Below are positions 3,848 to 44,608 of a DNA stretch of 64,000 nt, piece after piece. The DNA lies in NCBI GenBank assembly GCA_964445905.1, contig CAYUNN010000003.1:69312-133311 (forward strand), given 5' to 3'. The notes under the pieces are model-generated. The model had not been told where the DNA came from. It ran no database searches and saw only the letters and a list, made by a program, of their open reading frames with translations. Origin of the DNA: an uncultured Candidatus Saccharibacteria bacterium (GTDB lineage Bacteria; Patescibacteriota; Minisyncoccia; Minisyncoccales; JAGGXC01). Made by a program: the position numbers and the translations under genes. The number at the start of each line of letters is the position of its first letter. Positions within the stretch are counted from its first letter, which is position 1.

Positions 3848-5287
3848 ATGACCCCAAACGAATCATTATCAAAAGCTGATATAAAAAAAGCCTGTGATAT
3901 TCTTAGGCGAGACGATGGCGTAGGTGCCGGTAACTATGTTGAACAATTATCTTGGCTGCTTTTCTTGCGTGTTTTTGAAAATGTAGAACTTCAGCTTAAA
4001 GAAATAAAAGAGGCAGAGGGCGATAAACATCAAGATATTATTGATAAGGAATATCAATGGTCTTCTTGGGCCAGAAAAGATTGGAAAGATAAAGATGAGT
4101 TAGTTCATTTTGTTTCTAACAAGCTCTTTCCTTATTTAAGAAGTCTTAAGGGAACAAATGAAAAAGAGAAAATAGGAGAAATTTTTAGAGAATTAGACGG
4201 AAACAAAATTCGCTCCCCCTTCACATTGCTAGATGTAATTGAGATTCTGGATAAAGTTGATATGGTTCACTATCAAGACACGCACCTTTTGTCGCAGGTT
4301 TATGAGGAAATATTGCAGGAAATGGGCGCTGAAGGTGGTTGGGCCGGCGAGTTCTATACGCCTCGTCCGATTATCCGTTTAATGGTTAATATTATAGAGC
4401 CAAAATTAGGACAAAGTCTTCTCGACCCATTTGTCGGCTCAGCTGGTTTTTTAGTAGAAAGTTTTCATTATATTCAAGAAAATCTTAATAAAAAATCAAA
4501 AACTGGCCTAAGAGAATGGAAAATTCTACAAAATAAAACTTTTTATGGTCAAGAAAAAAAGCCACTTCCTTATTTGATTGGAACAATGAATATGATTCTT
4601 CATCAGATTTTAGTTCCTAATCTTATAAGAGCAAACACCTTAATGGAAGATGTTCATAATGTTTCGGAAAATAAAAAAGTAGATGTAATTTTGACAAATC
4701 CGCCGTTCGGAGGAAAAGAACATAAAAGCGTACAGAATAATTTCCCAATTCCGGTAGCTGCTACAGAAGGGCTTGCCTTGCAGTATGTAATGAGGCATTT
4801 AAAAAATGGTGGACGTTGCGGCATTGTATTACCAGAAGGACAGATTTTATTTGGTGGAGGAGCATTTCAGAAAATAAGAGAAGAGCTTTTAACAAAATTT
4901 AATGTTCATACAATTATATCATTGCCTCAAGGAGTTTTTGCTTCAATGGGGGCAGGGGTTAAAACAAATTTAGTTTTCTTTGAGAAAACAGGGCCCACAA
5001 AAGAAATTTGGTATGGCGAGATAAGCGGTAAATTTACCAAAAAGATTGTTGTTATAGATTCTAATTTAGAAGATGTTTATAAGAAATGGCAAAAGAGAGA
5101 GATTTCAGAAAATAGCTGGATAGTTCCTATTAAAGAGATTAAAGAACGTAATTTTGATATTTCTCCTAAGAATCCAAATAAATTAGCAGAAGAGGAGCTA
5201 CCAGAACCAAAAGAATTAGTAAAAAGAATAGAAGAATCCCAGAAAGAAGCAAAGCAGATTTTAGATAATATAAAAAAGATTTTGTAA
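3848..5287 (+). CDS. hsdM: Type I restriction-modification system, N6-adenine DNA methyltransferase subunit M
   Basis: Carries the N6-Mtase motif ILTNPPFGG, an AdoMet-binding region and the HsdM N-terminal domain. Translationally coupled to hsdS. Confidence 0.93.
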   Translation: MTPNESLSKADIKKACDILRRDDGVGAGNYVEQLSWLLFLRVFENVELQLKEIKEAEGDKHQDIIDKEYQWSSWARKDWKDKDELVHFVSNKLFPYLRSLKGTNEKEKIGEIFRELDGNKIRSPFTLLDVIEILDKVDMVHYQDTHLLSQVYEEILQEMGAEGGWAGEFYTPRPIIRLMVNIIEPKLGQSLLDPFVGSAGFLVESFHYIQENLNKKSKTGLREWKILQNKTFYGQEKKPLPYLIGTMNMILHQILVPNLIRANTLMEDVHNVSENKKVDVILTNPPFGGKEHKSVQNNFPIPVAATEGLALQYVMRHLKNGGRCGIVLPEGQILFGGGAFQKIREELLTKFNVHTIISLPQGVFASMGAGVKTNLVFFEKTGPTKEIWYGEISGKFTKKIVVIDSNLEDVYKKWQKREISENSWIVPIKEIKERNFDISPKNPNKLAEEELPEPKELVKRIEESQKEAKQILDNIKKIL

Positions 5288-5289
5288 CC

Positions 5290-7128: not shown

Positions 7129-7129
7129 T

Positions 7130-12615: not shown

Positions 12616-13149
12616 ATGAAAAAATATATCGTAATTATTGTAGCTTTGATTCTTGTTGGAGGATTTTCTATTGTTAGTGCATCTCAAGAAGGAAATCCTT
12701 TTCAGAAAATATGGACTGCAATAAATAATCTTCAAGAGCAAATCTATAGTATAGAGCTTACTCCCGGCCCAGAAGGACCGCAGGGACCAGAGGGTCCAGG
12801 GGGTCCAGAGGGTCCGCAGGGACCGGAAGGACCACAGGGAATACAAGGTCTGGAGGGACCTGCAGGTCCTACTATTTTTCCTGAACCAGCATTTGATAGT
12901 GGTTGGGTAGAAATACCACCATATAATTCTGTAACAGATATTCACCACGATGTAGGAGGAGATGTAAATGATTATTTCATTTATGCTACATATCTTAGGC
13001 ACAATGATACCCTTACATCACATAGAACCGCAGCCGATGCAATATGGTGGGAAGATGTAGAACCTAATAATATACAGTTAATAACTAATGGAGATGTAAC
13101 TAATGAATTTAAGGCAGCTAGAATAAGAATTTGGGTTATAGGAGAATAA
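12616..13149 (+). CDS. Secreted collagen-like triple-helix repeat protein with globular C-terminal domain
   Basis: N-terminal signal/TM ([18 protein letters not shown]). Eleven perfect G-x-y triplets ([35 protein letters not shown]) sit at nt ~12769-12875. A C-terminal domain of ~95 aa follows. Confidence 0.75.
12769..12875 (+). repeat. 9-bp-unit collagen-like (GPEGPQ) tandem repeat inside the CDS
   Basis: ggaccgcagggaccagagggtccagggggtccagagggtccgcagggaccggaaggaccacaggga. The copy number stays in frame. Confidence 0.7.
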
Positions 13150-19655: not shown

Positions 19656-20129
19656 ATGTTAAATAAAAGAAAAGGTTTTACGTTAATTGAATTATTAGTT
19701 GTTATTGCGATTATTGGTGTTTTAGCTTCTGTAGTGTTAGTCTCTTTGGGCGGAGCAAGGGCTAAAGCTAGAAATTCCAGAAGATATTCAGATATGAGAC
19801 AATTAATTACTGCTCTGGAATTATATTAGAATGAAAATGGATATTATGTTACTAGTAGTTCTTCTCTCTACGGTCTTCCTTCTATCGGAGAATATTTAAA
19901 TCCAGCTCCAACCGATCCCTTGCATCCTGACAGGGATTATATATGGATAAAAAATGATTATGATTGTTCTGCCCCGGAGTTAAAAGAGGGTGAGTGGTAT
20001 TGTGTTTTTGCAATTTTAGAAGATGTGTCCTCGAATCTTATTATAGCTAGTCCTTATGGGCTAAAAATACATTTCTTAGGTCCTGACATGGATGTGTGTC
20101 ATCAATGTTTGAGGATAGGATCTTATTAA
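19656..20129 (+). pseudogene. Type IV pilin (prepilin-type N-terminal methylation motif) interrupted by an in-frame TAG at 19827-19829
   Basis: MLNKRKG|[56 protein letters not shown]...; the stop falls where pilins have the conserved Tyr (LELYY). The same frame continues to 20129, which the track reports as a separate 69-aa ORF. Confidence 0.6.
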
Positions 20130-20256: not shown

Positions 20257-20664
20257 ATGAACAAAAAAATATTGACTATTGTGATAGCAGTAATTGCAAT
20301 AATAGTAATTTCTATTGCAGTTTATTTTATTCAAAATAGAGAAAATGAAACTATCGTCAATAACGGAAAAGAGACGAATGATTTCAATAACGGAGAAGAG
20401 ATGAATGATTTAGTTCAGTGCTTGGCTGACGCAGACGTGACTATATATGGCACTAAAACTTGTCCTGCTTGCGCTTCTTTTATAGGCAGCTTTGGCGGAT
20501 ACGATGCAGTAGGGCCGATTTACGTAGATTGCAATGAAGAAAGAGAGAGGTGTGGCGAGGAAATGAAAACTAATTATATCCCTGAGGTTCAAATAAAGGG
20601 AGAGCTTTACAAGGGATTAAGAAGTCCCGAGGGCATTGCAGAAGAAGTTGGATGTAAAAAATAA
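20257..20664 (+). CDS. Membrane-anchored thioredoxin-fold protein (CPAC active site)
   Basis: N-terminal TM, then ...TIYGTKTCPACASF..., a glutaredoxin/thioredoxin-like CxxC. Confidence 0.55.
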   Translation: MNKKILTIVIAVIAIIVISIAVYFIQNRENETIVNNGKETNDFNNGEEMNDLVQCLADADVTIYGTKTCPACASFIGSFGGYDAVGPIYVDCNEERERCGEEMKTNYIPEVQIKGELYKGLRSPEGIAEEVGCKK

Positions 20665-20677
20665 AAAATCGCAGAGC

Positions 20678-21817
20678 ATGTTTAAAAAAATAACAAAACT
20701 TTTTTTATTAACAGCTATCCTGTTTTTATCTTTTGGAGGAATAGTCTTTGCAGAAACAGATGTTAATGGCGAAGAAGAAAAAGTCGTTATATATTTGTTT
20801 GATGACAGATTATGTCCGGTATGTAAAGACGCAAAAGATTTTATTCAGGGGATTCAAAATGATTATCCTCAAGTCGAGCTAAGGGTTTATCCTGTAACTG
20901 ATACGGAAAAATTAAATGAAATAGCTAGGGAACACGGAATAAATGATTACAGGATAATGGCTCCCACTATTTTTATCGGTGATTACTTTTTTCAGTTTAG
21001 AGATTTTACCTCAAGAAGTGAAGAAATGATTCTCGGTGCCATTGAAGGAAAAGTAGTCAAAGAAGACTGCTGTATAATAAAGATTCCTTTTTTAAATATC
21101 GAGGTTGATATAAGCAACTGGTCCTTGCCGTTTATAGCAATGCTTCTTGGGTCTATAGATGGACTCAATGTTTGCTCCATAGGGGCACTAATTTTAATTT
21201 TATCCATTGTTCTTGTTTTTAAATCTAAAAAGAAGGTATTTTTCTTCGGGGGCCTTTTTATCTTTACTTCAGTTGTTGTTTACGGAACCCTAGTTTTTAT
21301 ATGGGGTCAGCTTTTTGAAAAATTAATTGGTCATTTAGAAATATTAAGAACAATAATCGGATTTGCTGTTTTAGGGGGAGCTATTTATTTTTTCAAAGAA
21401 TTTTATAGATTTTTTAAGTATGGGCCAACATGTAAGTCTTCAGATTCTGTCTTAATTAAAAAAGCAACAGAGAAATTACAAAAAGCATTTGAAAGAAAAG
21501 GTCAAAGCACATTGCTTCTCGTGGTGGCAGTTGTTTCCTTTGCTTTTGTTATTACTATTGTTGAGCTTCCTTGCTCCATTGGCATTCCTATTGCTTTTTC
21601 GGGAATACTTGTTGAGGCAGGAATTACATCAGCTTCTTTTTTCTTTTATATTCTTCTTTACCTTTTCTTTTATATGTTAATTGAGCTTATTATTTTTATT
21701 GGTGCGGTATTTACAAAGCAAATTTGGCTTGCTGGATCAAAGGCAATTACCTGGATTACTTTTGCTGGCTCAATGATCCTATTCTTTCTTGCATTTTATT
21801 ACTTAATTGGTTTTTAG
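20678..21817 (+). CDS. Secreted thioredoxin-like domain fused to CcdA/DsbD-like transmembrane thiol-disulfide transporter
   Basis: Signal peptide from the ATG at 20678 (MFKKITKLFLLTAILFLSFGGIVFA). CPVC motif (LCPVCKDAKDF). A C-terminal 6-TM domain has Cys in TM helices (LNVCSIGAL; ELPCSIGIP), as in CcdA/DsbD. The track ORF starts upstream at 20636. Confidence 0.5.
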   Translation: MFKKITKLFLLTAILFLSFGGIVFAETDVNGEEEKVVIYLFDDRLCPVCKDAKDFIQGIQNDYPQVELRVYPVTDTEKLNEIAREHGINDYRIMAPTIFIGDYFFQFRDFTSRSEEMILGAIEGKVVKEDCCIIKIPFLNIEVDISNWSLPFIAMLLGSIDGLNVCSIGALILILSIVLVFKSKKKVFFFGGLFIFTSVVVYGTLVFIWGQLFEKLIGHLEILRTIIGFAVLGGAIYFFKEFYRFFKYGPTCKSSDSVLIKKATEKLQKAFERKGQSTLLLVVAVVSFAFVITIVELPCSIGIPIAFSGILVEAGITSASFFFYILLYLFFYMLIELIIFIGAVFTKQIWLAGSKAITWITFAGSMILFFLAFYYLIGF

Positions 21818-28867: not shown

Positions 28868-31800
28868 ATGTTAGGACATAAACAATTTATTATTACTGAA
28901 TTCTTAATTAAAAACATGAATAAAATATTAACTTTAATCAAAGAAACTAATTCTTCTAAAAGAGCGTTAGTTTTTGCTTTCGCTGTTTTCTTTGTCAGCG
29001 TTTTTATTTTTAATTTAAACGTTGCTAAAGTAAATGGTTGCGTTCAAGATGATCCTGGCAGTATTACGGTTTGCAAGATTATAATTGACGAAGAGGGAAA
29101 TATAATAACAGATGCTTCTGATTATTCTCCTGCTAGTTTTAATATTCCTTTGTCAGGTGAATCAGCAAGTTTTTCTGATCATATTTTTGAAGCTCAGGAT
29201 TTTTCTCCGAACACTAAATTGATTAATAATTACGACGATGCAGAATGTGTTACTTATGATAATCTTGAGTTAGGAAATTACTATTATGGCGAAGAAATTA
29301 TTAGCCCAGAAGAAAATTGGGAAGAGCCATTGTATAATGATCAATTTTCTCATCAAGTAAATAGCCTCGGTGACTTTTTCGTTTATGACGGAGATCTAAA
29401 TGATGAAAGCAGAAATAAAAACTCTGACGGTCATATTGTATTAAGTCAGGGCAGACCGGAAAGAACACTGGTTATTCTTAATCAATATAAAGTACAGGAA
29501 CCGTCGCTAGTAACTATCCATGCTCTCAAGGTGGTTTGCGAAGGAGAAGAATATTTGCCTGATTGGGCAAGGACTTCCAGTAATCCCTCAATGATTACCG
29601 AAGATCTCGTCAACCAATATGTTGATGATTCGGATGGCAAGTGCTGGTTTGAACCGGGCTGGGAATTTGAATGGGGAGAAACAAGCGCTCCCGAAAAGAA
29701 TGGTGATTACATTGGTTATGGAGGTCAAGGTTGGAATACCTTTGGTCCGACCGATAACGAAGGAAAGGTAATAGTTGAAATTGACTATGTAGAAGGAAGA
29801 CAATATTTCTGGATGAGAGAAGTATTACAGGAAGGATACATTCCTTTTAGCGATTCAGGAGACGGTTCTGAATCTGTAAGCGCTGAAATGCTTTGTCATA
29901 TAGACGCATACAAATACGACAATTATGATCGCGTAGACAATCCAGAAGCGGGCGAGACTTATTATTGTGTTGCCTTTAATGCTCCAATGCCTACTTATTC
30001 TATATCTGGAAAGAAATGGGAAGATCTCAATGGTAACGGAGAAGAGAACTGTGGAGAAAATGGACTAGAAGGATGGGAGATAACCCTAAGTAACGGAGAA
30101 GAGGTCATCGCTACTACTACAACTGACAGCAATGGTTATTATATCTTCGAAGACTTATTGCCTGGTGCCTACGAAGTTTGCGAGGTATTAGTAGATGGCT
30201 GGGAGAATACTTATCCCGGAGAAGGGAATCTTTGTCACAGCGTAGAGATAGAAGAAAGCGATATCACAGACATTAATTTTGGTAATAATCTTATTGAAGA
30301 AGAAGAGTCTTTATTTATTTATGCTAGAAAGGTAGTTTGTGAAGAAGAACAATATTTGCCTAATTGGGGAGCAGATTCTAATAACCCCCCTCAAATTACA
30401 GGAGAAACAGCTGAAGATTATGTTCTTAATTCAAACGGAATGTGTCACTTCGAAGCATGGGATTTCCAATGGGGAATTCCCGAGGGAGCTGTAAAAAAAC
30501 CGGGAGAATTTATTGGTTTTGCTCCTGAACCAGGCTGGAATGTTTTTGGTCCTCATGATGAAGATTTAAGATCAATTGCGGAAATTAGCGGAACTGAATT
30601 AGGAGAAAATACTATAATCTGGGTAAGAGAAGTCTTAAGACCCGATTTTGTTATTTTTACTGATGGTTATACTTCCGAGGATGATTATAGTGCTGAAATG
30701 TATTGTCACATTGACGCATATAAATATGACAATTATGATCGCGTAGACAATCCAGAAATGGGAGATGAATATCACTGTGTCGCCTTTAACGCGCCTACTT
30801 GTACTATTAATTCTAATAATTGGAATCAAGTGGACAGAATAAATCTTGGTGATTCTGAAAGTATGGATGATCATGACGCTCAAGAATGGTGGGACGACCC
30901 GGGAGTAGGAAATTACGGAGGAAGAGATGGAGGAAACCTAATTGCTATCGTAAGAGGAGGAGATGAGTGCTCTGAAGAAACTGCTGCAGCTTCTTTTACT
31001 CTTCAAGCAGGAGCTAGCGCGTCAAGCCTTGTCTTAAGGCACTTGGATGGCTTGAGCAATCTTGATAGCTTTGATGTTTATATCAATGGAATAAAAATTG
31101 GAAGGTATCTAGATTCTCAAGACAGTGAAGAGATTTGGATTACTACTCATTTTTCATTGCCAGAAGGAATGTCCGGTCAATTGGAGGTTGAAATTGTTAA
31201 CATTAATAATCCTTGGGTAAACTGTTCAACATGTGGTCAATTAGCCTTTAATTGGGCTGAAGTTGGTTACTGCGGAGAAACTCCTCCTGCTAAAAGCACC
31301 CTTTATATTATTAAGGATGTTGTTGGAGGAACAGCTGTGTCTGGAGATTTTACAATTTATGTTGTTGGAAACAATCCATCTATAATGTCTTTTCCCGGTG
31401 AAGAATTTCCCGGAACCATAGTAACGCTTGACCATGGGCCTTATAGTGTCTCAGAATCAACTAGCTCAGACTATATTAGCATGCTTTCTGCTGATTGTTC
31501 TGGAACAATAGCGGAAGGAGAAGTTAAAACCTGTACTATAACTAACAGTTTTGACGAGCCTCCTTATTGTGGTGATGGAATATGTAATGGTGATGAGTAT
31601 TGTTATAATTGTCCAGAGGACTGTGGTAGTTGTGGAGGACCAGGTCCTGATCCTGATCCAGACCCTGATCCGGAGCCTGAACCAGAACCCTATTGTGGCG
31701 ATGGAATAGTAAACGGAGATGAAGAATGTGATGGAGAAGAAGGCGTCCCAGAAGGTTATGTCTGTAACGAGCATTGCGTTTTAGAAAGAACGATTTGCGA

Positions 31801-33136
31801 AATGGATTTGAATGTAATGATAGTAATAGATGTTTCTGGAAGTATGGCAAACGATATTCCAACAAAACTTTCTCAAGTTCAAATTAATGCTAATAACTTT
31901 ATTGGCAATTTAAGGAACAATGATAAATCTGGAGTAGTTTCTTTTAGCGGAATAGCTACTTTAGAAAAAGGCTTGTCAACAGATCATGCTTCTACTCAAT
32001 CTGTCATTGATGGTTTAGTTGCGTTTGGAGCTACTAATATAGGAGATGCTATTTATACAGCTAATCAAGAATTAATATCAGAAGATGATATTTCAGACGC
32101 AGCTAGAATAGAAATTCTCTTGACTGACGGTAAAGCTAATCGTCCAAATGGTGATGGTATTAATGAAAATTCAGCTGACCTAGCTTTAGCTTTAGAAAGA
32201 TCTTTAGAGGCAGCTGATAACGGAATTACTATTTTTACTATTGGAGTAGGCAATGAAGTTAACGAGGTTATGCTTCAAACCATAGCTGATAATACAGGCG
32301 GTACATATTACTTTATTCCTACTGCTGGAGAGCTAGAAGATATATTTAATCAAATATCTTCCGAAGCTTGTTTGATTGATGACGAAATAGAGGAAGAGTT
32401 GTCTGTAAAAGTTTTCGATTCAAGAATTATGTCTGTGTCAGATAATAGCGTTACTGTGTCTTGGTTAACTAATATACCAGCTACTAGTAGGGTTATTTAT
32501 GATACTGTTCCTCATCCCGTCCTAGGAGATGCTCCAAATTATGGTTATGAATGGTCAACTGAAGAGTATAGTACTAAGACTTACTTCCACGTAGTAACTA
32601 TTGCGGGAATAGATCCAGGAGAAACTTATTACTGGAGACCAGTCTCTCATGGCTCAGGAGAAAAAGTAGGAGAAGAAACTTCTTTTTCTATCAAGTCTCT
32701 TGAAGATAACATGAATGAGAACAATCAGAACAATCAGGGAGAACAGGAAGAAAGAGAAGAGGAAAAGCAAGAAGAAATGGTAGAAAACGAAGAAGGTCAA
32801 TCCAGAGCAGAAAATATTGTTGAAGAAGAAGAAAAAGGAGAAATGGCAGGTCTTATCGCTGCTATCGGAGAATTCTTCCGAGTAGAAAATCCTTGTTTAG
32901 TAGCGACAATTCTTCTATCAATTCTTGCAATTATATATGTCTTTACAAGAATGAGAAAAGGAAAAAGAACTACCGGAAAGAACAAGTATTCAGATTTAAT
33001 TGCAGGAATGATTATTTTAGCAATATTAGCAATTATATTTAAGTGTGCTTTGTTGCTAATTCCTGTGATTATATTAGCTATTCCTCTCTTGAAGGATAAG
33101 TTTTTAAAGCAAGAAAAAGAGCAAACTCAAATGTAA
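28868..33136 (+). CDS. Giant multidomain cell-surface protein (1422 aa): two paralogous ~160-aa domains, SdrD-B/CnaB-like, Cys-rich CGDG repeats, vWA, FN3-like, acidic tail, C-terminal TM anchors
   Basis: N-terminal TM. A duplicated module ends ...AEM(L/Y)CHIDAYKYDNYDRVDNPE.G..Y.CVAFNAP. SdrD-B-like ISGKKWEDLNGNG...GYYIFEDLLPGAYEV. PDPDPDPDPEPEPEP linker. YCGDGICNGDE / YCGDGIVNGDEECD Cys repeats. vWA MIDAS IDVSGSM...TDG. FN3-like SVTVSWLT...YYWRPVS. Two C-terminal TM helices. Confidence 0.8.
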   Translation: MLGHKQFIITEFLIKNMNKILTLIKETNSSKRALVFAFAVFFVSVFIFNLNVAKVNGCVQDDPGSITVCKIIIDEEGNIITDASDYSPASFNIPLSGESASFSDHIFEAQDFSPNTKLINNYDDAECVTYDNLELGNYYYGEEIISPEENWEEPLYNDQFSHQVNSLGDFFVYDGDLNDESRNKNSDGHIVLSQGRPERTLVILNQYKVQEPSLVTIHALKVVCEGEEYLPDWARTSSNPSMITEDLVNQYVDDSDGKCWFEPGWEFEWGETSAPEKNGDYIGYGGQGWNTFGPTDNEGKVIVEIDYVEGRQYFWMREVLQEGYIPFSDSGDGSESVSAEMLCHIDAYKYDNYDRVDNPEAGETYYCVAFNAPMPTYSISGKKWEDLNGNGEENCGENGLEGWEITLSNGEEVIATTTTDSNGYYIFEDLLPGAYEVCEVLVDGWENTYPGEGNLCHSVEIEESDITDINFGNNLIEEEESLFIYARKVVCEEEQYLPNWGADSNNPPQITGETAEDYVLNSNGMCHFEAWDFQWGIPEGAVKKPGEFIGFAPEPGWNVFGPHDEDLRSIAEISGTELGENTIIWVREVLRPDFVIFTDGYTSEDDYSAEMYCHIDAYKYDNYDRVDNPEMGDEYHCVAFNAPTCTINSNNWNQVDRINLGDSESMDDHDAQEWWDDPGVGNYGGRDGGNLIAIVRGGDECSEETAAASFTLQAGASASSLVLRHLDGLSNLDSFDVYINGIKIGRYLDSQDSEEIWITTHFSLPEGMSGQLEVEIVNINNPWVNCSTCGQLAFNWAEVGYCGETPPAKSTLYIIKDVVGGTAVSGDFTIYVVGNNPSIMSFPGEEFPGTIVTLDHGPYSVSESTSSDYISMLSADCSGTIAEGEVKTCTITNSFDEPPYCGDGICNGDEYCYNCPEDCGSCGGPGPDPDPDPDPEPEPEPYCGDGIVNGDEECDGEEGVPEGYVCNEHCVLERTICEMDLNVMIVIDVSGSMANDIPTKLSQVQINANNFIGNLRNNDKSGVVSFSGIATLEKGLSTDHASTQSVIDGLVAFGATNIGDAIYTANQELISEDDISDAARIEILLTDGKANRPNGDGINENSADLALALERSLEAADNGITIFTIGVGNEVNEVMLQTIADNTGGTYYFIPTAGELEDIFNQISSEACLIDDEIEEELSVKVFDSRIMSVSDNSVTVSWLTNIPATSRVIYDTVPHPVLGDAPNYGYEWSTEEYSTKTYFHVVTIAGIDPGETYYWRPVSHGSGEKVGEETSFSIKSLEDNMNENNQNNQGEQEEREEEKQEEMVENEEGQSRAENIVEEEEKGEMAGLIAAIGEFFRVENPCLVATILLSILAIIYVFTRMRKGKRTTGKNKYSDLIAGMIILAILAIIFKCALLLIPVIILAIPLLKDKFLKQEKEQTQM
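29505..29988 (+). repeat. Intragenic paralogous domain copy 1 (of 2) in giant surface protein
   Basis: LVTIHALKVVCEGEEYLPDW...CHIDAYKYDNYDRVDNPEAGETYYCVAFNAP. Shares an identical nt stretch gacaattatgatcgcgtagacaatccagaa with copy 2. Confidence 0.6.
30313..30798 (+). repeat. Intragenic paralogous domain copy 2
   Basis: LFIYARKVVCEEEQYLPNW...CHIDAYKYDNYDRVDNPEMGDEYHCVAFNAP. Confidence 0.6.
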
Positions 33137-33157
33137 GATTTGATTGCGAAAGAAGAA

Positions 33158-33188
33158 GAGGCTAGGTTTTTACTAGCCTCTTTTTTTA
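33158..33188 (+). terminator. Rho-independent terminator after the giant gene
   Basis: gaggctag-gtttttta-ctagcctc followed by ttttttt. Confidence 0.5.
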
Positions 33189-33257
33189 TAAAAAAGGACT
33201 TATCCACAGAAAACTTGATTGACTATACTTCCTATTAGTAATATTATTTAAATAGGA

Positions 33258-33644
33258 ATGATTACTAATAATAAAAAAGAAAGATTGACTCCGCAAAGGA
33301 AGATCATTATTGATTATTTAAAGAGTGTTAAAACCCATCCTACCGCCGAAGAGGTTTATTCGGCGGTAAAGAGGAAACTTCCCCGAATAAGCTTGGGAAC
33401 TATTTATCGTAATCTTCAAAAGCTAAAATGTTCTGGAGAGATTAGGGAGATTGATTGTAGAACGTGCGGAGTTACTCGTTACGACGGTAATATGTTTTCT
33501 CACGACCATTTTTTATGTGAGAAATGCAATAAGATATTTGATATTAAAAGGTCAGTTGATTTAAAAAATAAAATTAAAATAGGAAAAATTAAAAGTTACC
33601 AAATATATTTTTATGGAATTTGCAAAAAATGTTCAACAAAATAA
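33258..33644 (+). CDS. Fur-family transcriptional regulator (PerR-like peroxide regulon repressor)
   Basis: Winged-helix N-terminus (TPQRKIIIDYLKSVKTHPTAEEVYSAV...ISLGTIYRNLQKL). Metal sites HDHFLCEKC and CKKC. Sits at the head of the rubrerythrin/Dfx cluster. Confidence 0.8.
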   Translation: MITNNKKERLTPQRKIIIDYLKSVKTHPTAEEVYSAVKRKLPRISLGTIYRNLQKLKCSGEIREIDCRTCGVTRYDGNMFSHDHFLCEKCNKIFDIKRSVDLKNKIKIGKIKSYQIYFYGICKKCSTK

Positions 33645-33912
33645 AGCTTATTGTTATGATTGCAAGAAAAAAATTGAGATTAAAAACAATGAAGTCCAAA
33701 ACGGAGTCCTTCTTGGGTACAATGACAATGGAGAGAAATTAATGGTTTTTAAGTGCAATCAATGCTTTGCTAAGGATCCAAGCTTGAGCAAATTTAGGAA
33801 ATGCGAAGTTTATTCCAGGATAGTTGGTTATCTTAGGCCCATTAAGCAATGGAACAAAGGAAAGAAAAGAGAATTTGAGGAAAGAAAAAATTACGAGCAA
33901 AAAGAAGCTTAA
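33613..33912 (+). CDS. Standalone NrdD C-terminal domain homolog (zinc ribbon + glycyl-radical motif), 99 aa
   Basis: CYDCKKK...CNQC zinc ribbon, then ...CEVYSRIVGYLRPIKQWNKGKKREFEERK. This parallels the E. coli NrdD C-terminus ...TRRVCGYLGSPDARPFNAGKQEEVKRR (RxxGYL glycyl-radical site). Overlaps the Fur gene by 32 nt. Confidence 0.55.
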   Translation: MEFAKNVQQNKAYCYDCKKKIEIKNNEVQNGVLLGYNDNGEKLMVFKCNQCFAKDPSLSKFRKCEVYSRIVGYLRPIKQWNKGKKREFEERKNYEQKEA

Positions 33913-33926
33913 ATTAATTATTTTCT

Positions 33927-34370
33927 ATGGTAAAAAAAGAAAACATTACTGGGCTTATGCTCAAAAGTCATTGCAAGTTAGAAGTTCTTCTTAAAAACTT
34001 TAAAGTAGGGACAGATAAAGATGTTGATAGCATTAGTGATAATTTTGAAGAATTTGCAAAAGAACTTAAAAATCATTTATTTGTTGAAGAAGAAGCGATA
34101 TTTAAATTTATAGGTCCAATGCGAAACGAAGAGTATCAAGAGATTATCCCTGATCTCATAAGCGAACATAACTTGCTTTTAGAAAAGTTGAGCGATTTAA
34201 AAGAAAAAATTGTTGAAGGGAATGATATTGATATTACTAATTTTGAGAAATTATTAGTTCAGCATAAAAATTACGAAGAAGAATTTTTTTATCCTCAACT
34301 TGAGGAAAAATTAGAAGAATCTCAAAAAGAAAAAATAATTAAAAAGGTTAAAAAATTATCTATTAATTAA
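33927..34370 (+). CDS. Hemerythrin-like (HHE cation-binding) domain protein
   Basis: Repeated H...E / H..EE..F motifs (HCKLEVLL; NHLFVEEEAIF; SEHNLL; QHKNYEEEFFYPQLEE). Confidence 0.5.
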   Translation: MVKKENITGLMLKSHCKLEVLLKNFKVGTDKDVDSISDNFEEFAKELKNHLFVEEEAIFKFIGPMRNEEYQEIIPDLISEHNLLLEKLSDLKEKIVEGNDIDITNFEKLLVQHKNYEEEFFYPQLEEKLEESQKEKIIKKVKKLSIN

Positions 34371-34379
34371 TAAAAAAAT

Positions 34380-34964
34380 ATGGAAAAAACAATAAAAAAT
34401 TTGACAAAAGCATTTATTGGCGAAAGCCAAGCAAGAAACAGATATTCTTTTTATGCAAAGATTGCTAAAAAAGAAGGCTTTGAGCAAATCTCAGACATAT
34501 TCCTGTTAACAGCTGAAAACGAAAGAGAACATGCTAAGTGGCTTTTTCGCTTGATTAATGATTTAAAGGAAAAGAGCGGAGAAGACCTAGAAGAAATTGA
34601 AGTAGAAGCTTCAGCTCCAACAATTATCGGAGATACTGTTCAGAATCTTAAGTCGGCTATTGACGGAGAGCATTATGAAAATACAAAAATGTATCCTGAA
34701 TTTGCTGACACGGCAGAGGAAGAAGGTTTTCCGGAGATTGCTAAAAGATTGAGAGCCATTAGCAAAGCAGAAGAGCATCACGAAGAGAGATATGTAAAAT
34801 TACTGGCAGAAGTGGAAAACAATACAGTATTTAGCAAGGAAGAAAAAACTTATTGGGTTTGCAGGAAATGTGGCTATGTTCATGAAGGAGAAAAGCCTCC
34901 CGAAGAATGTCCTTCTTGCAGTCATCCCAGTAATTATTTTGAACTTAAGTGTGAAAAATATTAA
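34380..34964 (+). CDS. rbr: Rubrerythrin
   Basis: Ferritin-like diiron E..H motifs ([10 protein letters not shown]; [11 protein letters not shown]) plus a C-terminal rubredoxin-like domain [10 protein letters not shown]...CPSCSHP. Confidence 0.9.
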
Positions 34965-34970
34965 TTAAAA

Positions 34971-35360
34971 ATGACAGAAAAAAAACAAATCTATAAGTGC
35001 AATATTTGCGGGAATATTGTCGAAGTTATTCATGTCGGCCAGGGAGAGTTAGTTTGTTGTGGTCAACCGATGGAATTGCAAAGAGAAAAGACAGAAGACG
35101 CTGGAGAAGAAAAGCATGTTCCAGTAATTGAGAAAACAGAAGATGGCGTAAGAGTTAAAATCGGATCTCATCCTCATCCAATGGAGGAACAGCACTACAT
35201 TGAATGGATAGAGATTATTGTTAATGGAAGGTCTTATCGTAAGTTTCTAGGTCCAAACGACAAGCCAGAAGCAGATTTTGAAATCCGAGCAGATAACATT
35301 CAAGCAAGAGAATATTGCAATATTCATGGCCTGTGGAAAACTCATTACCAGAAAGATTAA
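34971..35360 (+). CDS. dfx: Desulfoferrodoxin (superoxide reductase, class I 2Fe-SOR)
   Basis: N-terminal desulforedoxin [10 protein letters not shown]...LVCCGQPM, then a SOR centre with [23 protein letters not shown] and CNIHGLW. Confidence 0.88.
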
Positions 35361-35396
35361 TGATAAAAAAATACGTGAATAAAATATTCACGTGTT

Positions 35397-35933
35397 TTAT
35401 AACGCTGGAAAAAGCTGATAAGCAATAGCTGTTAAGATAAAAGCTCTAAAGATATTCCCTAGAAAAAGGATAGGAAGAGCTTTTTTTATTTTTAATAATC
35501 TTGCTGCTATTATCGTTATCGTAGGGAGTTGTGGCAAAGGAATGAAATTAAGGGTTAAAGTTACCCAATTTTTTTGGTTTACTAGCCAAAACACTCCTTT
35601 TTCTTTTGTTTTTTCCCCGAATCTCAAATTGCTTTTAACTTTTTTCCACCATCTATTCAATATTTTAATTAAACAGTTTATACTTTTCCATCTTATCATC
35701 TTTCTGATTGCCCAATCTGTTCCATAATAGGTTATTATTAATGTTCCTGTCCAATAAATAATTGTAAAGGACAGAGTAATATGGAAAGGCACTCCGAGCA
35801 AACGATAAGCTGTTATTCCTCCAAAACCATTTAAAAAAAGAAGAGGGAATCCGGTGATTAATTTTCCTAACATCTTTTCTCCTAGCTTTAAAAGAGCTAT
35901 CCAAAAATTAGCATATTTTAGCTGAAACGTCAA
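35397..35933 (-). CDS. Hypothetical polytopic membrane protein (178 aa)
   Basis: 4-5 hydrophobic helices. The only minus-strand gene in this stretch. No confident family. Confidence 0.4.
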   Translation of the reverse strand: MTFQLKYANFWIALLKLGEKMLGKLITGFPLLFLNGFGGITAYRLLGVPFHITLSFTIIYWTGTLIITYYGTDWAIRKMIRWKSINCLIKILNRWWKKVKSNLRFGEKTKEKGVFWLVNQKNWVTLTLNFIPLPQLPTITIIAARLLKIKKALPILFLGNIFRAFILTAIAYQLFPAL

Positions 35934-39000: not shown

Positions 39001-39948
39001 ATGAGGGCATTTACTTTTATTGAGCTCTTAATTGTAATAGGTATTATTTCTGTTCTTTTACTTTTAACGATCCCATTAGGGATTGGTTTTTATAAAGGAC
39101 AGCAATTAGATAGTGTAGCCGAAGGAGTTCTTCAAAATTTAAGGAGAGCTCAACTAAGAGCTATGTCTCAGTCTGATTATGACTTCGGAGTTTATTTTGG
39201 TTCCGGAAACATCGAAGAATATATTCTTTTTCAGGGAGATTCCTATGCTAACGGTGAGAATGAAGAAGTATTTGATGTCCCCAAAGGAATTTATTTTAGC
39301 GGATTGGAAGAAGTGGTTTTTTCAAGAACTGCCGGAGAGCCTTTTTTGACAGGAGATATCAGCATAACCAATGAGATTTCAAATGTTATTATCAGTATTA
39401 ATAACTTAGGGAGAATAAGTTATGCTCCTCCTGAGCCTCCACCTCCCCAGGGCTGCTGGGGAACAGGAGGAGAATGTGATCCTCTTTGCCATTATACTGA
39501 TTACGGCATTCCGACAGCAGCTTATCGAGAACCAATCCCTCCCTGCAACAGAGAATGCAATCCAGCCAGAAATATATTTATTGATCCTTCAGGAGCGTGC
39601 AGAGATGACGGAACGGATAACTGCTACAAAATGACAGATCCAACAACCGGATACACTGAATGCATCCAGAGAGAATCATGCGAAGGAAGGTGTGAGGGGA
39701 TATGTACTCCTTGTCGAGAGATAATAGATCCTCAGGAATGCGAACAGCAAGAAGGGTGCAGAGCTATTTCATCTCCAGGAGTTTTTATATGTCGTGGAGA
39801 ATGTGTTTCTTGCGAGGAGTTTTCTGAAGGAGGAAACTGTTCCAATCAGCTGGGTTGCGGTTGGGATGCTACTGCCTGGTACTGGGAACTTGCCAGTCCC
39901 CAATCAGGCTACTTTAATTATGTAACTTGTGAATGGTATGAAGAATGA
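39001..39948 (+). CDS. Prepilin-type (pseudopilin/minor pilin) protein with C-terminal ~165-aa Cys-rich module, paralog 1
   Basis: MRAFTFIELLIVIGIISVLLL class-III signal. The C-terminal GCWGTGGECDPLCHY...CNRECNPAR...CEGRCEGICTPC...NCSNQLGCGWDATAWYWELASPQSGYFNYVTCEWYEE carries ~22 Cys. Confidence 0.8.
   Translation: MRAFTFIELLIVIGIISVLLLLTIPLGIGFYKGQQLDSVAEGVLQNLRRAQLRAMSQSDYDFGVYFGSGNIEEYILFQGDSYANGENEEVFDVPKGIYFSGLEEVVFSRTAGEPFLTGDISITNEISNVIISINNLGRISYAPPEPPPPQGCWGTGGECDPLCHYTDYGIPTAAYREPIPPCNRECNPARNIFIDPSGACRDDGTDNCYKMTDPTTGYTECIQRESCEGRCEGICTPCREIIDPQECEQQEGCRAISSPGVFICRGECVSCEEFSEGGNCSNQLGCGWDATAWYWELASPQSGYFNYVTCEWYEE
39451..39948 (+). repeat. Cys-rich-module nucleotide repeat, copy 1 (~498 bp)
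   Basis: Begins ggctgctggggaacaggaggagaatgtgat and ends gtaacttgtgaatggtatgaagaatga. Near-identical to the copies at 40361 and 41625. Confidence 0.85.
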
Positions 39949-40858
39949 AGGATTTACTTTAATTGAGTTAATAATATATATTGCTATTGTTTCATTGATT
40001 CTTATTCTGTCTAGTAATTTTGCTTGGGATATTATTCAGGGAAATGTTAAATCTAATTCTTCTCGAGAAGTACAACAAAATGCCCGCTTTGCAATGGAAA
40101 GAGTTTCCCGCAGTTTAAGAGAGGGAAATGATCCGCTTATTTTTAGTGTTGTCGATGGCGTTCTTTATGAAAGTGATGCCCCCTTAACTAGCGAACAGGT
40201 TAGGGTTGTTGATTTTAGTATTACTTCTGTCTCAAATACTTATAAGATTAGTTTAACTGTTGAGTATAATAATATTAGCGGGAGAAGAGAGTATGAAGCG
40301 GAATCAACCTTAGAGTCAACAATTGCTTTATTTTCAGGAGACATATCTCCACCTCCCGAGGGCTGCTGGGGAACAGGAGGAGAATGTGATCTTCTTTGCC
40401 ATTACGCTAATTACGGTATCCCGACAGCAGCTTATCGAGAACCAATTCCTCCCTGCAACAGAGAATGCAATCCAGCCAGAAATATATTTATTGATCCTTC
40501 AGGAGCGTGTAGTGATGATGGAACAGGCGATTGTTACAAGATGGCAGATTCAACAACCGGGCCTACCGAATGTATCCAGAGAGAATCATGCGAAGGGAGA
40601 TGCGAAGGAATATGTACTCCTTGTCGGGAGATTGTGGATCCTCAAGAATGCGAACAACAAGAAGGGTGCAGAATGATTGCAACTCCAGGAGGTTTTATGT
40701 GTCACGGAGAATGTATTGCCTGTGAAGAATTCCCTGATGAAGAAAACTGTTCCAATCAGCTGGGTTGCGGTTGGAACGCTACTGCCTGGTACTGGGAACT
40801 TGCCAGTCCCCAATCAGGCTACTTTAATTATGTAACTTGTGAATGGTATGAAGAATGA
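39938..40858 (+). CDS. Prepilin-type protein with the same C-terminal Cys-rich module, paralog 2
   Basis: ATG at 39938 gives MKNEG|FTLIELIIYIAIVSLILIL. The start is embedded in paralog 1's terminal ...gaatggtATGaagaaTGA. The track ORF begins earlier at an alternate GTG. Confidence 0.78.
   Translation: MKNEGFTLIELIIYIAIVSLILILSSNFAWDIIQGNVKSNSSREVQQNARFAMERVSRSLREGNDPLIFSVVDGVLYESDAPLTSEQVRVVDFSITSVSNTYKISLTVEYNNISGRREYEAESTLESTIALFSGDISPPPEGCWGTGGECDLLCHYANYGIPTAAYREPIPPCNRECNPARNIFIDPSGACSDDGTGDCYKMADSTTGPTECIQRESCEGRCEGICTPCREIVDPQECEQQEGCRMIATPGGFMCHGECIACEEFPDEENCSNQLGCGWNATAWYWELASPQSGYFNYVTCEWYEE
40361..40858 (+). repeat. Cys-rich-module nucleotide repeat, copy 2
   Basis: Same start and end strings as copy 1. 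Internal differences are clustered, e.g. RMIATPGGFMCHGECIACEEFPDEEN vs RAISSPGVFICRGECVSCEEFSEGGN. Confidence 0.85.
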
Positions 40859-42125
40859 GAGAGGACAATCTTTTATAGAACTGCTAATTGCTATGGGAAT
40901 TTTTGTTGCATTGATGTCTGCCGTTACTTTTCTCGTTCTTAATTCTCATATAAGCAACAGGATTGGTCAGGAAATTACTCTGGCCGATTATCTGGCTCAA
41001 GAGGGATTAGAAGCGGCAAAGTCAATAAGAGATAATAACTGGGATGATTTAACAGATGGATCTCATGGAATTGACATTTTTGATGATAGATGGATTTTCC
41101 AAGGAACAGAGAATGATTTAAGCGATAAACTTAACGATGGGAAAAGATCGATAGTCGTGGAAACAAAAAGTTCTGATGTTAAAAAAATTATTTCTTCCGT
41201 TGAATGGAAATTTACAGGAGGAAGAATTCAAAAAGTTGAACTGGTTAGTTATCTGACAAATTGGCAAAAAGAAACGTCGGGGATTACGGTTTTTTTCAGT
41301 TCAAGTGAATATTCAGTTTTAGAAAGTGCAGGTATTTTTACTGCTGAAGTCAATCTTTCCGAGGCATACGAAGGTGAAATTACTGTAAGATATAGAACAG
41401 AAAATGGAAGCGCTGTTTCCCCGGATGATTATTTGAAAGCTGATGATATTTTAGTTTTTGATCCCGGGGTTATTTCCCAAACTTTTGACATAGAGATTGT
41501 GGATAACTTATTAGAAGAGTCGGATAAATATTTTAGCCTGATCCTTTATGGTCCTCAAAATGCTATGCTTGGATCTCCCAGTATGGCAACGATAGTAATT
41601 ATTGACGATGATGGTCCTCCCCAGGGCTGCTGGGGAACAGGAGGAGAATGTGATCTTCTTTGCCATTATACTGATTACGGCATTCCGACAGCAGCTTATC
41701 GAGAACCAATCCCTCCCTGCAACAGAGAATGCAATCCAGCCAGAGATATCTTTGTCAATCCTTCAGGAGCGTGCAGAGATGACGGAACGGATAACTGCTA
41801 CAAAATGATAGATTCAACAACCGGATACACTGAATGCATCCAGAGAGAATCATGCGAAGGAAGGTGTGAGGGGATATGTACTCCTTGCGAAGAAATTATA
41901 GACCCAAGAGAATGCGAACAGCAAGAAGGGTGCAGAGGATTTAATGTTCCAGGAGGAGGTTTTAGATGTTTGGGCAGATGCGTTGTTTGTGGAGAGTTTC
42001 CCGACGAAGGAAACTGTTCCAATCAGTTAGGTTGTTGGTGGGATGCTACTGCCTGGTATTGGGAACTTGCCAGTCCCCAATCAGGCTACTTTAATTATGT
42101 AACTTGTGAATGGTATGAAGAATGA
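40848..42125 (+). CDS. Prepilin-type protein with Calx-beta-like domain + the same Cys-rich module, paralog 3
   Basis: MKNERGQSFIELLIAMGIFVALMSAV class-III signal. Calx-beta-like ...YRTENGSAVSPDDYLKADDILVFDPGVISQTFDIEIVDN... The C-terminal module ends ...CEWYEE. Confidence 0.78.
   Translation: MKNERGQSFIELLIAMGIFVALMSAVTFLVLNSHISNRIGQEITLADYLAQEGLEAAKSIRDNNWDDLTDGSHGIDIFDDRWIFQGTENDLSDKLNDGKRSIVVETKSSDVKKIISSVEWKFTGGRIQKVELVSYLTNWQKETSGITVFFSSSEYSVLESAGIFTAEVNLSEAYEGEITVRYRTENGSAVSPDDYLKADDILVFDPGVISQTFDIEIVDNLLEESDKYFSLILYGPQNAMLGSPSMATIVIIDDDGPPQGCWGTGGECDLLCHYTDYGIPTAAYREPIPPCNRECNPARDIFVNPSGACRDDGTDNCYKMIDSTTGYTECIQRESCEGRCEGICTPCEEIIDPRECEQQEGCRGFNVPGGGFRCLGRCVVCGEFPDEGNCSNQLGCWWDATAWYWELASPQSGYFNYVTCEWYEE
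41625..42125 (+). repeat. Cys-rich-module nucleotide repeat, copy 3 (~501 bp)
   Basis: Same start and end strings. One extra codon (GGGF). Confidence 0.85.
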
Positions 42126-42519
42126 GAATCAAAAAAATGGATACATTGCTTTAGTTTCTGTCCTTATTATTTCTTCAATTACCTTATTTTTAGCAATTAA
42201 TGCTAATTTATTTGGTATTTCAGAATCAGGAATGGCTTTGAGGAAAAGCCATTCTTCCAAGTCTTTTTATCTGGCTAATCTTTGCGCTGAAGACGCTTTA
42301 ATGAAGTTAAAAAATAATTTGGATTATTCCGGAGATGAAACATTGAGTCTTGACGGAGGAAGCTGCTATATTTCTTCACTTGAAGGAAGCGGCAATGAAG
42401 ATAGGATAATTAAAACAAGCGGAAACTTCAATGATCAGACAAGAAGGATTATAATAGAAATAGGCAGGGTTAATCCTTTAATGGAAATTAGTTCATGGAG
42501 AGAAGTATCGAGTTTTTAA
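42115..42519 (+). CDS. Prepilin-like small protein (no Cys module)
   Basis: MKNENQKNGYIALVSVLIISSITLFLAINA hydrophobic N-terminus. The start again overlaps the preceding CEWYEE* terminus. Confidence 0.55.
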   Translation: MKNENQKNGYIALVSVLIISSITLFLAINANLFGISESGMALRKSHSSKSFYLANLCAEDALMKLKNNLDYSGDETLSLDGGSCYISSLEGSGNEDRIIKTSGNFNDQTRRIIIEIGRVNPLMEISSWREVSSF

Positions 42520-42531
42520 TGAAATATAATT

Positions 42532-44028
42532 ATGTTCCGCGGAAATAAAATTTTTGGCATAGATATAAGTGATTTTTCGATAGAAATTTTACAGCTCAAT
42601 TCTAGAAAAAAACCAATGGCATTTGGCAGAATTGTTATTGAAGAAGGAATTGTAAGAGATGGGTTTGTTTTGAAAAAAGAAGAATTGAAAAAGAAAATAG
42701 AAAAAGTCGTTTCTAAATCAAGGGTTCGAGGAAACAAGGTTATCTTGTCTTTGCCCGAATCAAAAGTTTTTACCAGTCTTTTTAGTATTCCCGGAGAAAT
42801 CAAAGGAGACAGGCTTAAAGAAGCAATTGAGAATGAAGCTAGAAAAACTATTCCCATTGAGTCTTCAAAAATATACTGGGATTGGCAGGTAGTTTTTACG
42901 GATCCCAAGAGCAATCAGCAGTTAATACTTTACGTTGGAACATTAAAAGAAATCATTGATGATTATCTTGATATTTTCAAAGACCTGGGAATAGAAATTA
43001 TTGCTTTTGAATTAGATTCTGTTGCTCTAGCCCGGGCCTTACTGGTAAAAAATAAACCAAGAAATGGAGTGCTGATTATGGATATCGGGGCTCGGGTGAC
43101 CGATATTAGTATTTTTGACAAAGATATTATCCTAAAAGATTCCAATGTAGTCTCTGTGGGAGGGGATTATTTAACCAAAATATTAGCGGAAAAATTAAAA
43201 ATATCAGAAGAAAAAGCAGAAAGAGCCAAAAGGAAGTTTGGCGTGGATGGAGAGAACGAAAAAGTGAGCAAAATTTTAAAAGAAGAATTAGAACCTGTTA
43301 TTGAAAGAACGAATAAATCAGTCAGTTATTACAGGGGAAAATTAGATGGGGCATTTTTAGCTGGAGGATCAGCTCAGATTCCTGGCTTGTCCAGTTATTT
43401 TGCTTCTAAAATAAACCTTAATACCAGTATTGGTGTTTCTCCTCTTCTAGCTCAAATCAAAGAAGGTTCGGTTCTTTTTAATACCGTAGCAGGATTAGCC
43501 TTGAGAGGAATAGAAAAAGATCCTAAAAAAGCAGGCGTGAATCTTCTGCCTAAAAAAGAAAAGAGAACCAGTTTAGTTAGTCAGGAAACAAGCAAAAAGA
43601 ATTATTTCCGGGTCTTGGCTATTATAATAGGAATAATCGGTTTTGTTTTTCTTAGCTGGGTAATTTATAAATTTATTATTGAACCTCTTGATCAAAAACC
43701 AAAACCTCCTCCCTTATTAGAGGAAGTACCTGTGGCCACCGGCACAGAAGAAGAAGTTCAACCAGAGCCAGAGCCGGAGCCGGAGCTAGAACCGGAAGTG
43801 GAAGTAGAAGAAATAGAAGTCGTTATTATTTTGGAAACAGAAGAAGGTTGGATTGATGTAAGACAGGGGCCTGATGATAACTATCCTTCTGTAGCCAGAA
43901 TTAATGCCGGGGATAGTTTTCCACTATTGGCTGAATTTGATAATTGGTATAGAATAGAATTAACAGACGGTACTACTGGTTGGGTTTCTGGTAAAAGTGT
44001 TATAATAGAAAAACAATCTACCAACTAA
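42532..44028 (+). CDS. PilM-like actin-fold ATPase fused to PilN-like TM segment and C-terminal bacterial SH3 (SH3b) domain
   Basis: N-terminal FGIDISDFSIEILQL and a second actin-like subdomain. A TM helix YFRVLAIIIGIIGFVFLSWVIY. A Pro/Glu-rich linker PEPEPEPELEPE. SH3b-like GWIDVRQGPDDNYPSVARINAGDSFPLLAEFDNWYRIELTDGTTGWVSGKSV. Confidence 0.72.
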   Translation: MFRGNKIFGIDISDFSIEILQLNSRKKPMAFGRIVIEEGIVRDGFVLKKEELKKKIEKVVSKSRVRGNKVILSLPESKVFTSLFSIPGEIKGDRLKEAIENEARKTIPIESSKIYWDWQVVFTDPKSNQQLILYVGTLKEIIDDYLDIFKDLGIEIIAFELDSVALARALLVKNKPRNGVLIMDIGARVTDISIFDKDIILKDSNVVSVGGDYLTKILAEKLKISEEKAERAKRKFGVDGENEKVSKILKEELEPVIERTNKSVSYYRGKLDGAFLAGGSAQIPGLSSYFASKINLNTSIGVSPLLAQIKEGSVLFNTVAGLALRGIEKDPKKAGVNLLPKKEKRTSLVSQETSKKNYFRVLAIIIGIIGFVFLSWVIYKFIIEPLDQKPKPPPLLEEVPVATGTEEEVQPEPEPEPELEPEVEVEEIEVVIILETEEGWIDVRQGPDDNYPSVARINAGDSFPLLAEFDNWYRIELTDGTTGWVSGKSVIIEKQSTN

Positions 44029-44507: not shown

Positions 44508-44608
44508 TTTTTTAAAATAGATTAATTGTGAAGCATAAGGTTCGGAAGTTTTTCTTTCGGGCCTTTTATGTTAAAATGTATTAACCTATTAATTTTTTGA
44601 TTATTTAA

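Follow-up and report, generated by a model that had tools for sequence, protein, structure and literature searches.

How candidate phyla radiation (CPR) bacteria and DPANN archaea locate their hosts and stay attached to them is an open question, for which type IV pili are the leading candidates. The stretch analysed here (the window, 64 kb of contig CAYUNN010000003.1 from an uncultured Candidatus Saccharibacteria bacterium) raises it in a particular form. It carries what is apparently a single type IV pilus operon of CPR/Patescibacteria, pilB–pilC–g1–g2–g3–g4–pilM–major pilin, and three consecutive minor-pilin genes of this operon, g1 to g3, end in nearly the same Cys-rich module. What would a pilus do with one domain in triplicate? 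With moderate confidence, the modular pilins g1–g3 and the pilin-like g4 can be read as a pilus tip set displaying a trivalent, probably disulfide-bonded module head for attachment. Modular minor pilins in a tip complex are already known; new here are the module itself, its presence on three presumed tip pilins of one operon and a concerted evolution restricted to this domain.

The products of g1–g3 are of prepilin type. Each has an N-terminal class III signal (leaders MRA/FTFIE, MKNEG/FTLIE and MKNERG/QSFIE), and the genes are co-encoded with an assembly ATPase, a platform protein and PilM. PF07963 scores 25.3 bits for g2 and 23.2 bits for g3 (cutoff 21.2) and 16.6 bits for g1, which is over the cutoff of TIGR02532 (17.9 bits against 16.3). 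The open reading frames (ORFs) and these Pfam and NCBIfam signals confirm the three class III-signal minor pilins in a row that an earlier note, made from the letters of this DNA, had recognised. The same note took the N-terminal halves to be unrelated; they are all prepilin-type, and the pilin parts share 25–30% pairwise identity. Pro-rich linkers (PPEPPPPQ, ISPPPE and DDGPPQ) precede the module, and g3 has in addition the Calx-beta domain that had been noticed before (E = 4.9e-22). A pilin part, a short linker and an extra domain that also occurs on non-pilins (P0047 and P0051; related proteins are numbered P, related contigs and loci L) make up the architecture of a modular pilin.

The genes g1–g4 are contiguous and encode four minor pilins, one of them without Glu5, which fits the layout of an H/I/J/K tip set. 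ComGD (NCBIfam) matches g1 at residues 2–123. Every one of the five g1 orthologues has matches both to ComGD (best E = 5.2e-15) and to GspH (5.3e-7), these matches lying under the curated cutoffs wherever a score is listed. The pilin-like g4 lacks Glu5 (NGYIALV), as do five orthologues, and its place 3′ of the final module-bearing gene is conserved in L004, L014, L017 and L020; it is a candidate cap (K/ComGG-like) subunit. The reading of g1–g4 as a tip set follows from these two ends, the ComGD/GspH-like g1 in five orthologues and g4 without Glu5.

The stop/start overlap reported in the earlier note is real: the 11-nt ATGAAGAATGA is present three times, the third serving g4. Since it holds a stop codon plus the ATG of the next gene, g2, g3 and g4 all start with MKNE; the gene tables of the Joint Genome Institute (JGI) for L007 and L014 call the same overlap. 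These overlaps would couple the translation of g1–g4 and so supply the four subunits in equal amounts. Once processed as prepilins, these would assemble into a quasi-helical tip complex with g4 as its cap, and the three modules would be shown together at the pilus tip, for attachment to a host cell or a surface. Observed here are the genes and their operon, the homology and concerted evolution of the modules and their lack of a known family or fold; the tip location, equal stoichiometry, disulfide bonding and adhesive function are inferred. In modular pilins described elsewhere, the effector modules sit at the pilus tip, the PilABC tip complex of Streptococcus sanguinis bears two adhesive modules, and a tip complex of co-encoded minor pilins has a cap without Glu5 (PMC8179133, PMC9934059). 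In Saccharibacteria, efficient host binding needs a minor pilin with a C-terminal domain (PMC11623550).

The three module copies share 84–87% of their amino acids and 86–93% of their nucleotides over 165–166 residues, and they appear as two direct-repeat families of three copies each (300 nt at 88–93% and 172 nt at 86–90% identity). With tblastn they were found at the positions previously given (Table 1), and no fourth copy was found anywhere in the window. All three agree completely over their first ~31 nt and their last 66 nt, as had been described, and the earlier estimate of about 22 Cys is corrected to exactly 20 in each copy. The module contains an N-terminal A subdomain with 8 Cys (GCWGxGGxCD…PxC…C…PSGxC…DGxGxCYKM…C), two copies of a helix-hairpin B repeat (GxCTPCxxFxDxxxCxxQxGCxW; B1 against B2, hhalign probability 97.9%, E = 3e-13) and an aromatic terminal hairpin (WYWxLxxxxxGYxxYxxCEWY), so that it ends in CEWY. 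In relatives, the A subdomain may be tandemly duplicated (P0024, P0025 and P0037), as may the terminal hairpin (P0024, P0025 and P0010), and the B repeat is present four or five times in g2 of L005 and in P0020. All 20 Cys are kept in most homologues, with fixed spacing, and an expanded form has 30. The centre, residues ~104–130, is the most variable part (59% identity within genomes, 38–40% between), and length changes of the module fall there; this fast-evolving centre would be the likely contact surface. A pilin-type-specific sequence in the centre was considered and rejected, identity being 38% for the same type and 40% for different types.

The module is richer in G+C, mainly at codon positions 1–2 (0.53 versus 0.40), with a small rise at position 3 (0.33 versus 0.25), and a foreign origin was rejected on this basis; the excess reflects amino-acid content, perhaps together with a slight GC bias of conversion. 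Each copy also contains an alternative-frame ORF of 68–117 aa (39422–39634, 40323–40676 and 41602–41808); these are most likely by-products of repeated GC-richer sequence and not genes.

Of the two origins that the earlier note had considered for the copies, recent duplication and gene conversion, the second has stood. Recent duplication is not supported because orthologous arrays exist: an operon with three module-bearing pilins and g4 is found in L014, L017 and L020 (assembly GCA_026396195.1, one protein of which, P0014, bears the label Ca. Nealsonbacteria), and partially in L005. Between genomes, the pilin parts of the same type are 45–73% identical and those of different types 22–33%, whereas the modules are 41–61% identical in both comparisons, with no signal by type; the L014 modules share 58–61% with those of the window. 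Within one genome, the pilin parts share 21–30% and the modules 84–87% in the window, 81–88% in L014, 70–76% in L017 and 53–62% in L020. The pilin parts are thus orthologous across genomes while the modules cluster by genome; the module trio is under concerted evolution, and the three-gene arrangement is old, predating the split of at least four lineages. The order of the middle genes varies: g1, the Calx-beta pilin, the g2-type pilin and g4 follow one another in L017 (5809–9333), L020 (5741–9300) and L005, and the order in the window and in L014 is g1, g2, Calx-beta pilin, g4. Recombination between the repeated modules could have swapped the two.

The copy-by-copy alignment proposed in the earlier note resolves its variable patches into a mosaic along the module, with synonymous divergence (dS) from 0.04 to ~1.0. 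Copies 1 and 3 differ by a dS of 0.04 in the first 78 codons (the A subdomain) and of ~1.0 in the B2 repeat, copy 2 is the outlier across the first ~270 nt, and the terminal hairpin has a dS of 0.07–0.15 for every pair. Identical runs of 66–88 nt exceed the expectation from pairwise divergence (permutation P about 0.001 or less). The patchy differences are a mosaic left by partial conversion tracts. Because the modules lie 0.9–1.3 kb apart as direct repeats, gene conversion (non-reciprocal recombination) continues to homogenise their 5′ and 3′ parts; within each genome they therefore change together, and the pilin parts keep their orthology between genomes. The ratio of non-synonymous to synonymous divergence (dN/dS) is 0.16–0.33 overall and 0.24–0.29 in the most variable part where estimable; the module is therefore under purifying selection, and no positive selection was found in it.

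The module belongs to no known family or fold, as the earlier note had supposed. Searches of Pfam (to E = 10), NCBIfam and the PDB sequences gave no match; there was none of the module model to PDB or BFVD folds, and none to a curated model or solved fold of the Cys-rich domains described so far (EGF, PSI, knottin, defensin-like and others). A literature search found no paper describing it, IMG/VR contained no phage relatives, and a single-sequence word-index search with the module returned nothing; a profile including metagenome homologues was needed to detect its relatives. A HMMER scan of 1.84 billion cluster representatives then gave 45 proteins at E ≤ 0.001, nine of them below 1e-30, and a profile word-index search gave 22. 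The close members are prepilin-type proteins of uncultured bacteria, the named ones being labelled Ca. Nealsonbacteria or ‘Ca. Saccharibacteria’. AlphaFold2 (AF2) predicts an elongated, beta-hairpin-rich module with a mean predicted local distance difference test score (pLDDT) of 88.5; a model from the three paralogues alone (pLDDT 35) was discarded.

Seven relatives (P0032, P0033, P0036, P0039, P0043, P0044 and P0048) have an archaeal-type class III signal (QxxLEYL) and comprise an A subdomain, an inserted ~180-aa domain at the variable centre, a B repeat and the terminal hairpin; the module tolerates insertions at its centre. P0036 (L018, 8001–10178) has an A subdomain ~50% identical to those of CPR bacteria (tblastn E = 1e-24), and in its N-terminal part it shares 45% identity with a Ca. 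Tiddalikarchaeum anstoanum (Nanobdellota) protein that itself has no module. T2SSE and T2SSF genes lie ~6 kb downstream of P0036, and this locus has a single module copy. Such similarities suggest that a pilus module was exchanged between CPR bacteria and archaea of DPANN-like kind. Two Sec-type proteins that are anchored in the membrane at their C-termini, P0051 and P0047, bear the module too. Occurring on archaeal-type pilins and on anchored proteins, the module is thus a portable cell-surface domain, found mostly on pili. Arrays of the B repeat alone were seen in unrelated secreted proteins and putative lipoproteins (P0029, P0030, P0031, P0035, P0038 and P0045), some with Laminin_G_3 domains; the arrays reach nine matched stretches in P0029 and 28 in P0031, and no Pfam or NCBIfam model covers this repeat of ~30 residues.

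A bolder extension of the attachment reading, put forward tentatively and with far less confidence, is that the module might be a host-recognition head common to the pili of ultrasmall CPR and DPANN-like archaeal episymbionts, arranged as a pseudo-homotrimer on the three CPR tip pilins, with conversion passing a change in scaffold or binding centre to all three arms together. If true, this would provide a built-in route by which a trivalent adhesin is retargeted to new hosts.

Several observations weigh against attachment by a tip set. An assignment of g2 and g3 to the I and J types is weak: the g2 matches in NCBIfam (ComGF, GspJ and ‘Verru_Chthon cassette protein C’) are weak, sub-threshold and mostly confined to the N-terminal helix, and the type of g3 is taken solely from the JGI name ‘PilV’ of a g3-type homologue, P0016. 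There is no Pfam, NCBIfam or PDB match for g4, and no detectable homologue with known structure. Profile searches of the PDB with the pilin parts of g1, g2 and g4 gave N-terminal-helix matches or nothing. The charge of the module is not conserved (isoelectric point, pI, about 4.1 in the window versus 7.8 for g1 of L020) and so points to no shared chemistry of a ligand. Of five AF2 models one is confident, the other four scoring 58–78. Gene conversion may also be a neutral by-product of repeat proximity and not selected. As to DNA binding, it was considered as a module function and fits poorly with the strongly acidic modules of the window (pI about 4.1).

The main rival to adhesion is structural. 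The modules might associate into a pseudo-homotrimeric stalk or cap, which would nucleate the tip complex or stabilise it, their concerted evolution being selected for mutual compatibility. Those CPR operons examined here that span the whole set hold exactly three module-bearing pilins, the homogenised parts are the module ends, which could be interfaces, and the elongated, hairpin-rich AF2 model would suit a stalk. The type IVb minor pilins CofB and TcpB are homotrimers at the tip. A single module, however, is present in the archaeal locus L018 and on the anchored non-pilins P0047 and P0051, and the module therefore does not need two partners. A structural role is accordingly held to be possible but doubtful, and adhesion is favoured.

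Could the 20 invariant Cys instead ligate metals or clusters and give the pilus a role in redox chemistry, in electron transfer or in the capture of metal? The module is very dense in Cys, with fixed spacing, the lineages appear anaerobic, and rubrerythrin and desulfoferrodoxin genes adjoin the operon. On the other hand, the Cys number is even, at 20 in the module and 30 where it is expanded, there is neither a ferredoxin-type CxxCxxCxxxCP motif nor a match to a metal-binding family, and an MdbA-like thiol-disulfide oxidoreductase, its gene often adjoining that of VKOR, is enriched among CPR genomes (10.1101/335083). Pilins are exported unfolded (10.1101/335083), which in our view disfavours insertion of a cofactor in the cytoplasm. 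Metal binding is judged improbable, and the module is considered to be probably disulfide-bonded because its Cys count is even and invariant, its location extracellular and the MdbA-like enzyme enriched in CPR genomes. Within the window, two overlapping genes (20257–20664 and 20636–21817) encode membrane-anchored proteins with CPAC and CPVC motifs, which have no Pfam match and resemble thioredoxin, DsbA-like/ScsC proteins and the bacterial VKOR Trx domain weakly (E = 0.03–0.3). They may constitute an extracytoplasmic thiol-disulfide system relevant to module folding.

The cassette-like variation of pilus tips envisaged in the earlier note, in which the copies would serve as donors and acceptors in the manner of pilE/pilS, has fared worse and is considered very improbable. 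The patchy differences, the variable centre and some transfer between copies would agree with it. Strain-level recombination, which the same note had proposed to look for in related genomes or metagenome reads, is indicated by a short copy-2-like tract in copy 1 of L008 and L010, with six clustered single-nucleotide polymorphisms relative to the window at 39489–39537. Four of the six are copy-2 alleles, three of these contiguous (39507–39537), and two are unique; copy 2 is unchanged and only one change is non-synonymous (Thr to Asp). The chance of such copy-2 matches is by our own estimate ~4e-5, assuming 36 paralogue-variant sites per 300 nt and a base-match chance of one in three. Contig L013, in turn, joins copy 1 to copy 3, fusing g1 to copy 3 inside a 40-nt identical stretch (6442–6481, equal to window 39442–39481 and 41616–41655) with the loss of 2,174 bp and with flanks 100% identical to the window. 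The lost segment holds the pilin parts of g2 and g3 and is present as a separate contig, L012, in the same sample; the junction is either a true deletion variant or a shortcut taken by the assembler.

Against such programmed variation, five of the six population contigs covering the array equal the window across the three module genes, save the one short copy-1 tract, and conversion homogenises the module ends and does not diversify the centre, where dN/dS stays within 0.16–0.33. The silent, promoterless partial cassettes of a pilE/pilS system are missing: tblastn detected no silent or truncated module copies in the window, and all three copies sit in complete, co-translated genes. A diversity-generating retroelement (DGR) with adenine mutagenesis was also considered and rejected. 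Module substitutions are ordinary, mostly transitions in both directions and not adenine-specific, which excludes a retroelement mechanism; those window ORFs that were scanned showed neither a recombinase nor a reverse transcriptase. With no silent cassettes, no positive selection and no adenine bias, programmed variation is not supported.

That the similarity reflects recent tandem duplication or misassembly, as the high nucleotide identity and the related-genome contigs that break within a module (L001, L006, at the end of a 651-kb contig, L015 and L016) might suggest, is already refuted by the same three module-bearing pilin types in four diverged lineages, by inter-copy dS that saturates in the centre and by an array assembled identically in six samples. 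The array recurs at 99.8–100% identity in six independent metagenome contigs, each of a different JGI sample and in one case 117 kb long; an assembly artefact, which the earlier note had named as a possible refutation, is therefore excluded for the array as a whole. Contig ends inside modules are consistent with repeats that break short-read assemblies here: as the repeated modules are kept alike, assemblies tend to break or collapse at this locus.

The remaining parts of the operon support its assignment (Table 1). In the identical JGI contig L007, the gene table gives MshEN and T2SSE for pilB, and the source name is ‘type IV pilus assembly protein PilB’. A GTG lies at 39929, ahead of g2, the length of which is counted from the ATG. 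The probable major pilin matches GspG (E = 2.3e-9) over residues 6–140, and the hairpin following this last pilin is the best terminator-like site of the region on the + strand. PilM is joined to its SH3 domain by a Pro/Glu-rich acidic linker (PEPEPEPELEPEVEVEE), a fusion kept in L007–L009 and L020. No PilD was identified among the window ORFs scanned.

Table 1. Coordinates of the pilus operon, its module copies and its overlaps in the window.
Feature	Position	Strand	Source
pilB-type assembly ATPase, first gene of the operon, 565 aa	36078–37775	+	ORF
pilC-type platform protein, 404 aa	37781–38995	+	ORF; T2SSF in L007 gene table
g1, modular minor pilin, 315 aa: ComGD/GspH-like (H-type) pilin part, Pro-rich linker, copy 1	39001–39948	+	
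Module copy 1, 165 aa, 20 Cys	39451–39945	+	Repeat finder, tblastn
Stop/start overlap g1/g2, 11 nt, ATGAAGAATGA	39938–39948	+	ORF ends, sequence
g2, modular minor pilin, 306 aa from ATG, with copy 2	39938–40858	+	PF07963
Module copy 2, 165 aa, 20 Cys	40361–40855	+	Repeat finder, tblastn
Stop/start overlap g2/g3, 11 nt	40848–40858	+	ORF ends, sequence
g3, modular minor pilin, 425 aa: PilV-like leader, Calx-beta, copy 3	40848–42125	+	PF07963
Calx-beta domain in g3	about 41274–41612	+	Residues 143–255, E = 4.9e-22
Module copy 3, 166 aa, 20 Cys, one extra Gly codon	41625–42122	+	Repeat finder, tblastn
Stop/start overlap g3/g4, 11 nt	42115–42125	+	ORF ends, sequence
g4, pilin-like protein, 134 aa, without Glu5 (NGYIALVSV), without module	42115–42519	+	
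pilM with C-terminal SH3 domain	42532–44028	+	PilM_2 E = 2.9e-32, SH3_3 E = 2e-11
Probable major pilin, GspG-like, 146 aa	44067–44507	+	N_methyl 27.4 bits
Terminator-like hairpin at operon end	44537–44565	+	12-pair stem

Directly 5′ of the operon (28868–35423) lie a gene for a 1,422-aa surface protein with SdrD_B and VWA domains and an oxidative-stress cluster of FUR, an NrdD-like protein, hemerythrin, rubrerythrin and desulfoferrodoxin, which adjoins the operon in L014 and L006 too. A further prepilin-type gene at 19656–20129 has an in-frame TAG after codon 57 and is a pseudogene or a sequence error. The window also contains a complete type I restriction-modification system (HsdM, HsdS and HsdR) and a small protein with a collagen-like repeat (3848–9583 and 12616–13149).

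For the question of host contact, the locus provides a concrete, conserved candidate for the contact part of a pilus: a compact, disulfide-type domain in triplicate with a defined variable centre, small enough for expression, disulfide mapping and ligand-binding tests. It is also a clean natural case of concerted evolution limited to one domain of three diverged, co-translated genes.

Among known systems, Neisseria pilE/pilS is alike in the non-reciprocal transfer of sequence between repeated pilin segments. There, silent partial cassettes diversify one expressed major pilin, whereas here the copies are in expressed-type minor-pilin genes and the net effect is homogenisation. Closer in lineage is TM7x, where PilX1 and PilX2 (PMC11623550) also belong to a CPR type IV pilus and a minor pilin with a C-terminal domain is implicated in host binding; these domains are of beta-jelly-roll type (PilX1) and a beta-propeller (PilX2), one per locus, with no Cys-rich repeat and no triple display. 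The sets GspH-I-J-K, FimU-PilV-W-X and ComGD-E-F-G share with g1–g4 the four consecutive minor-pilin genes 3′ of ATPase and platform genes, a ComGD/GspH-like first gene and a last gene without Glu5. The order g1–g3–g2–g4 of L017 and L020 would fit H-I-J-K if g3 were of I type and g2 of J type, types that the sequence does not demonstrate. Unlike these sets, three of the four pilins here bear a large identical C-terminal extension, and the window lineage swaps the middle two. The modular pilins of S. sanguinis (a vWA module is borne by PilB, a lectin module by PilC; PMC8179133, PMC9934059) have the same succession of N-terminal pilin part, linker and C-terminal effector module, are likewise minor pilins encoded with monoderm-type pilus machinery, and several are predicted in one tip complex. 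S. sanguinis, however, uses two unrelated known folds, and the operon described here has one new Cys-rich domain on three pilins, homogenised by conversion.

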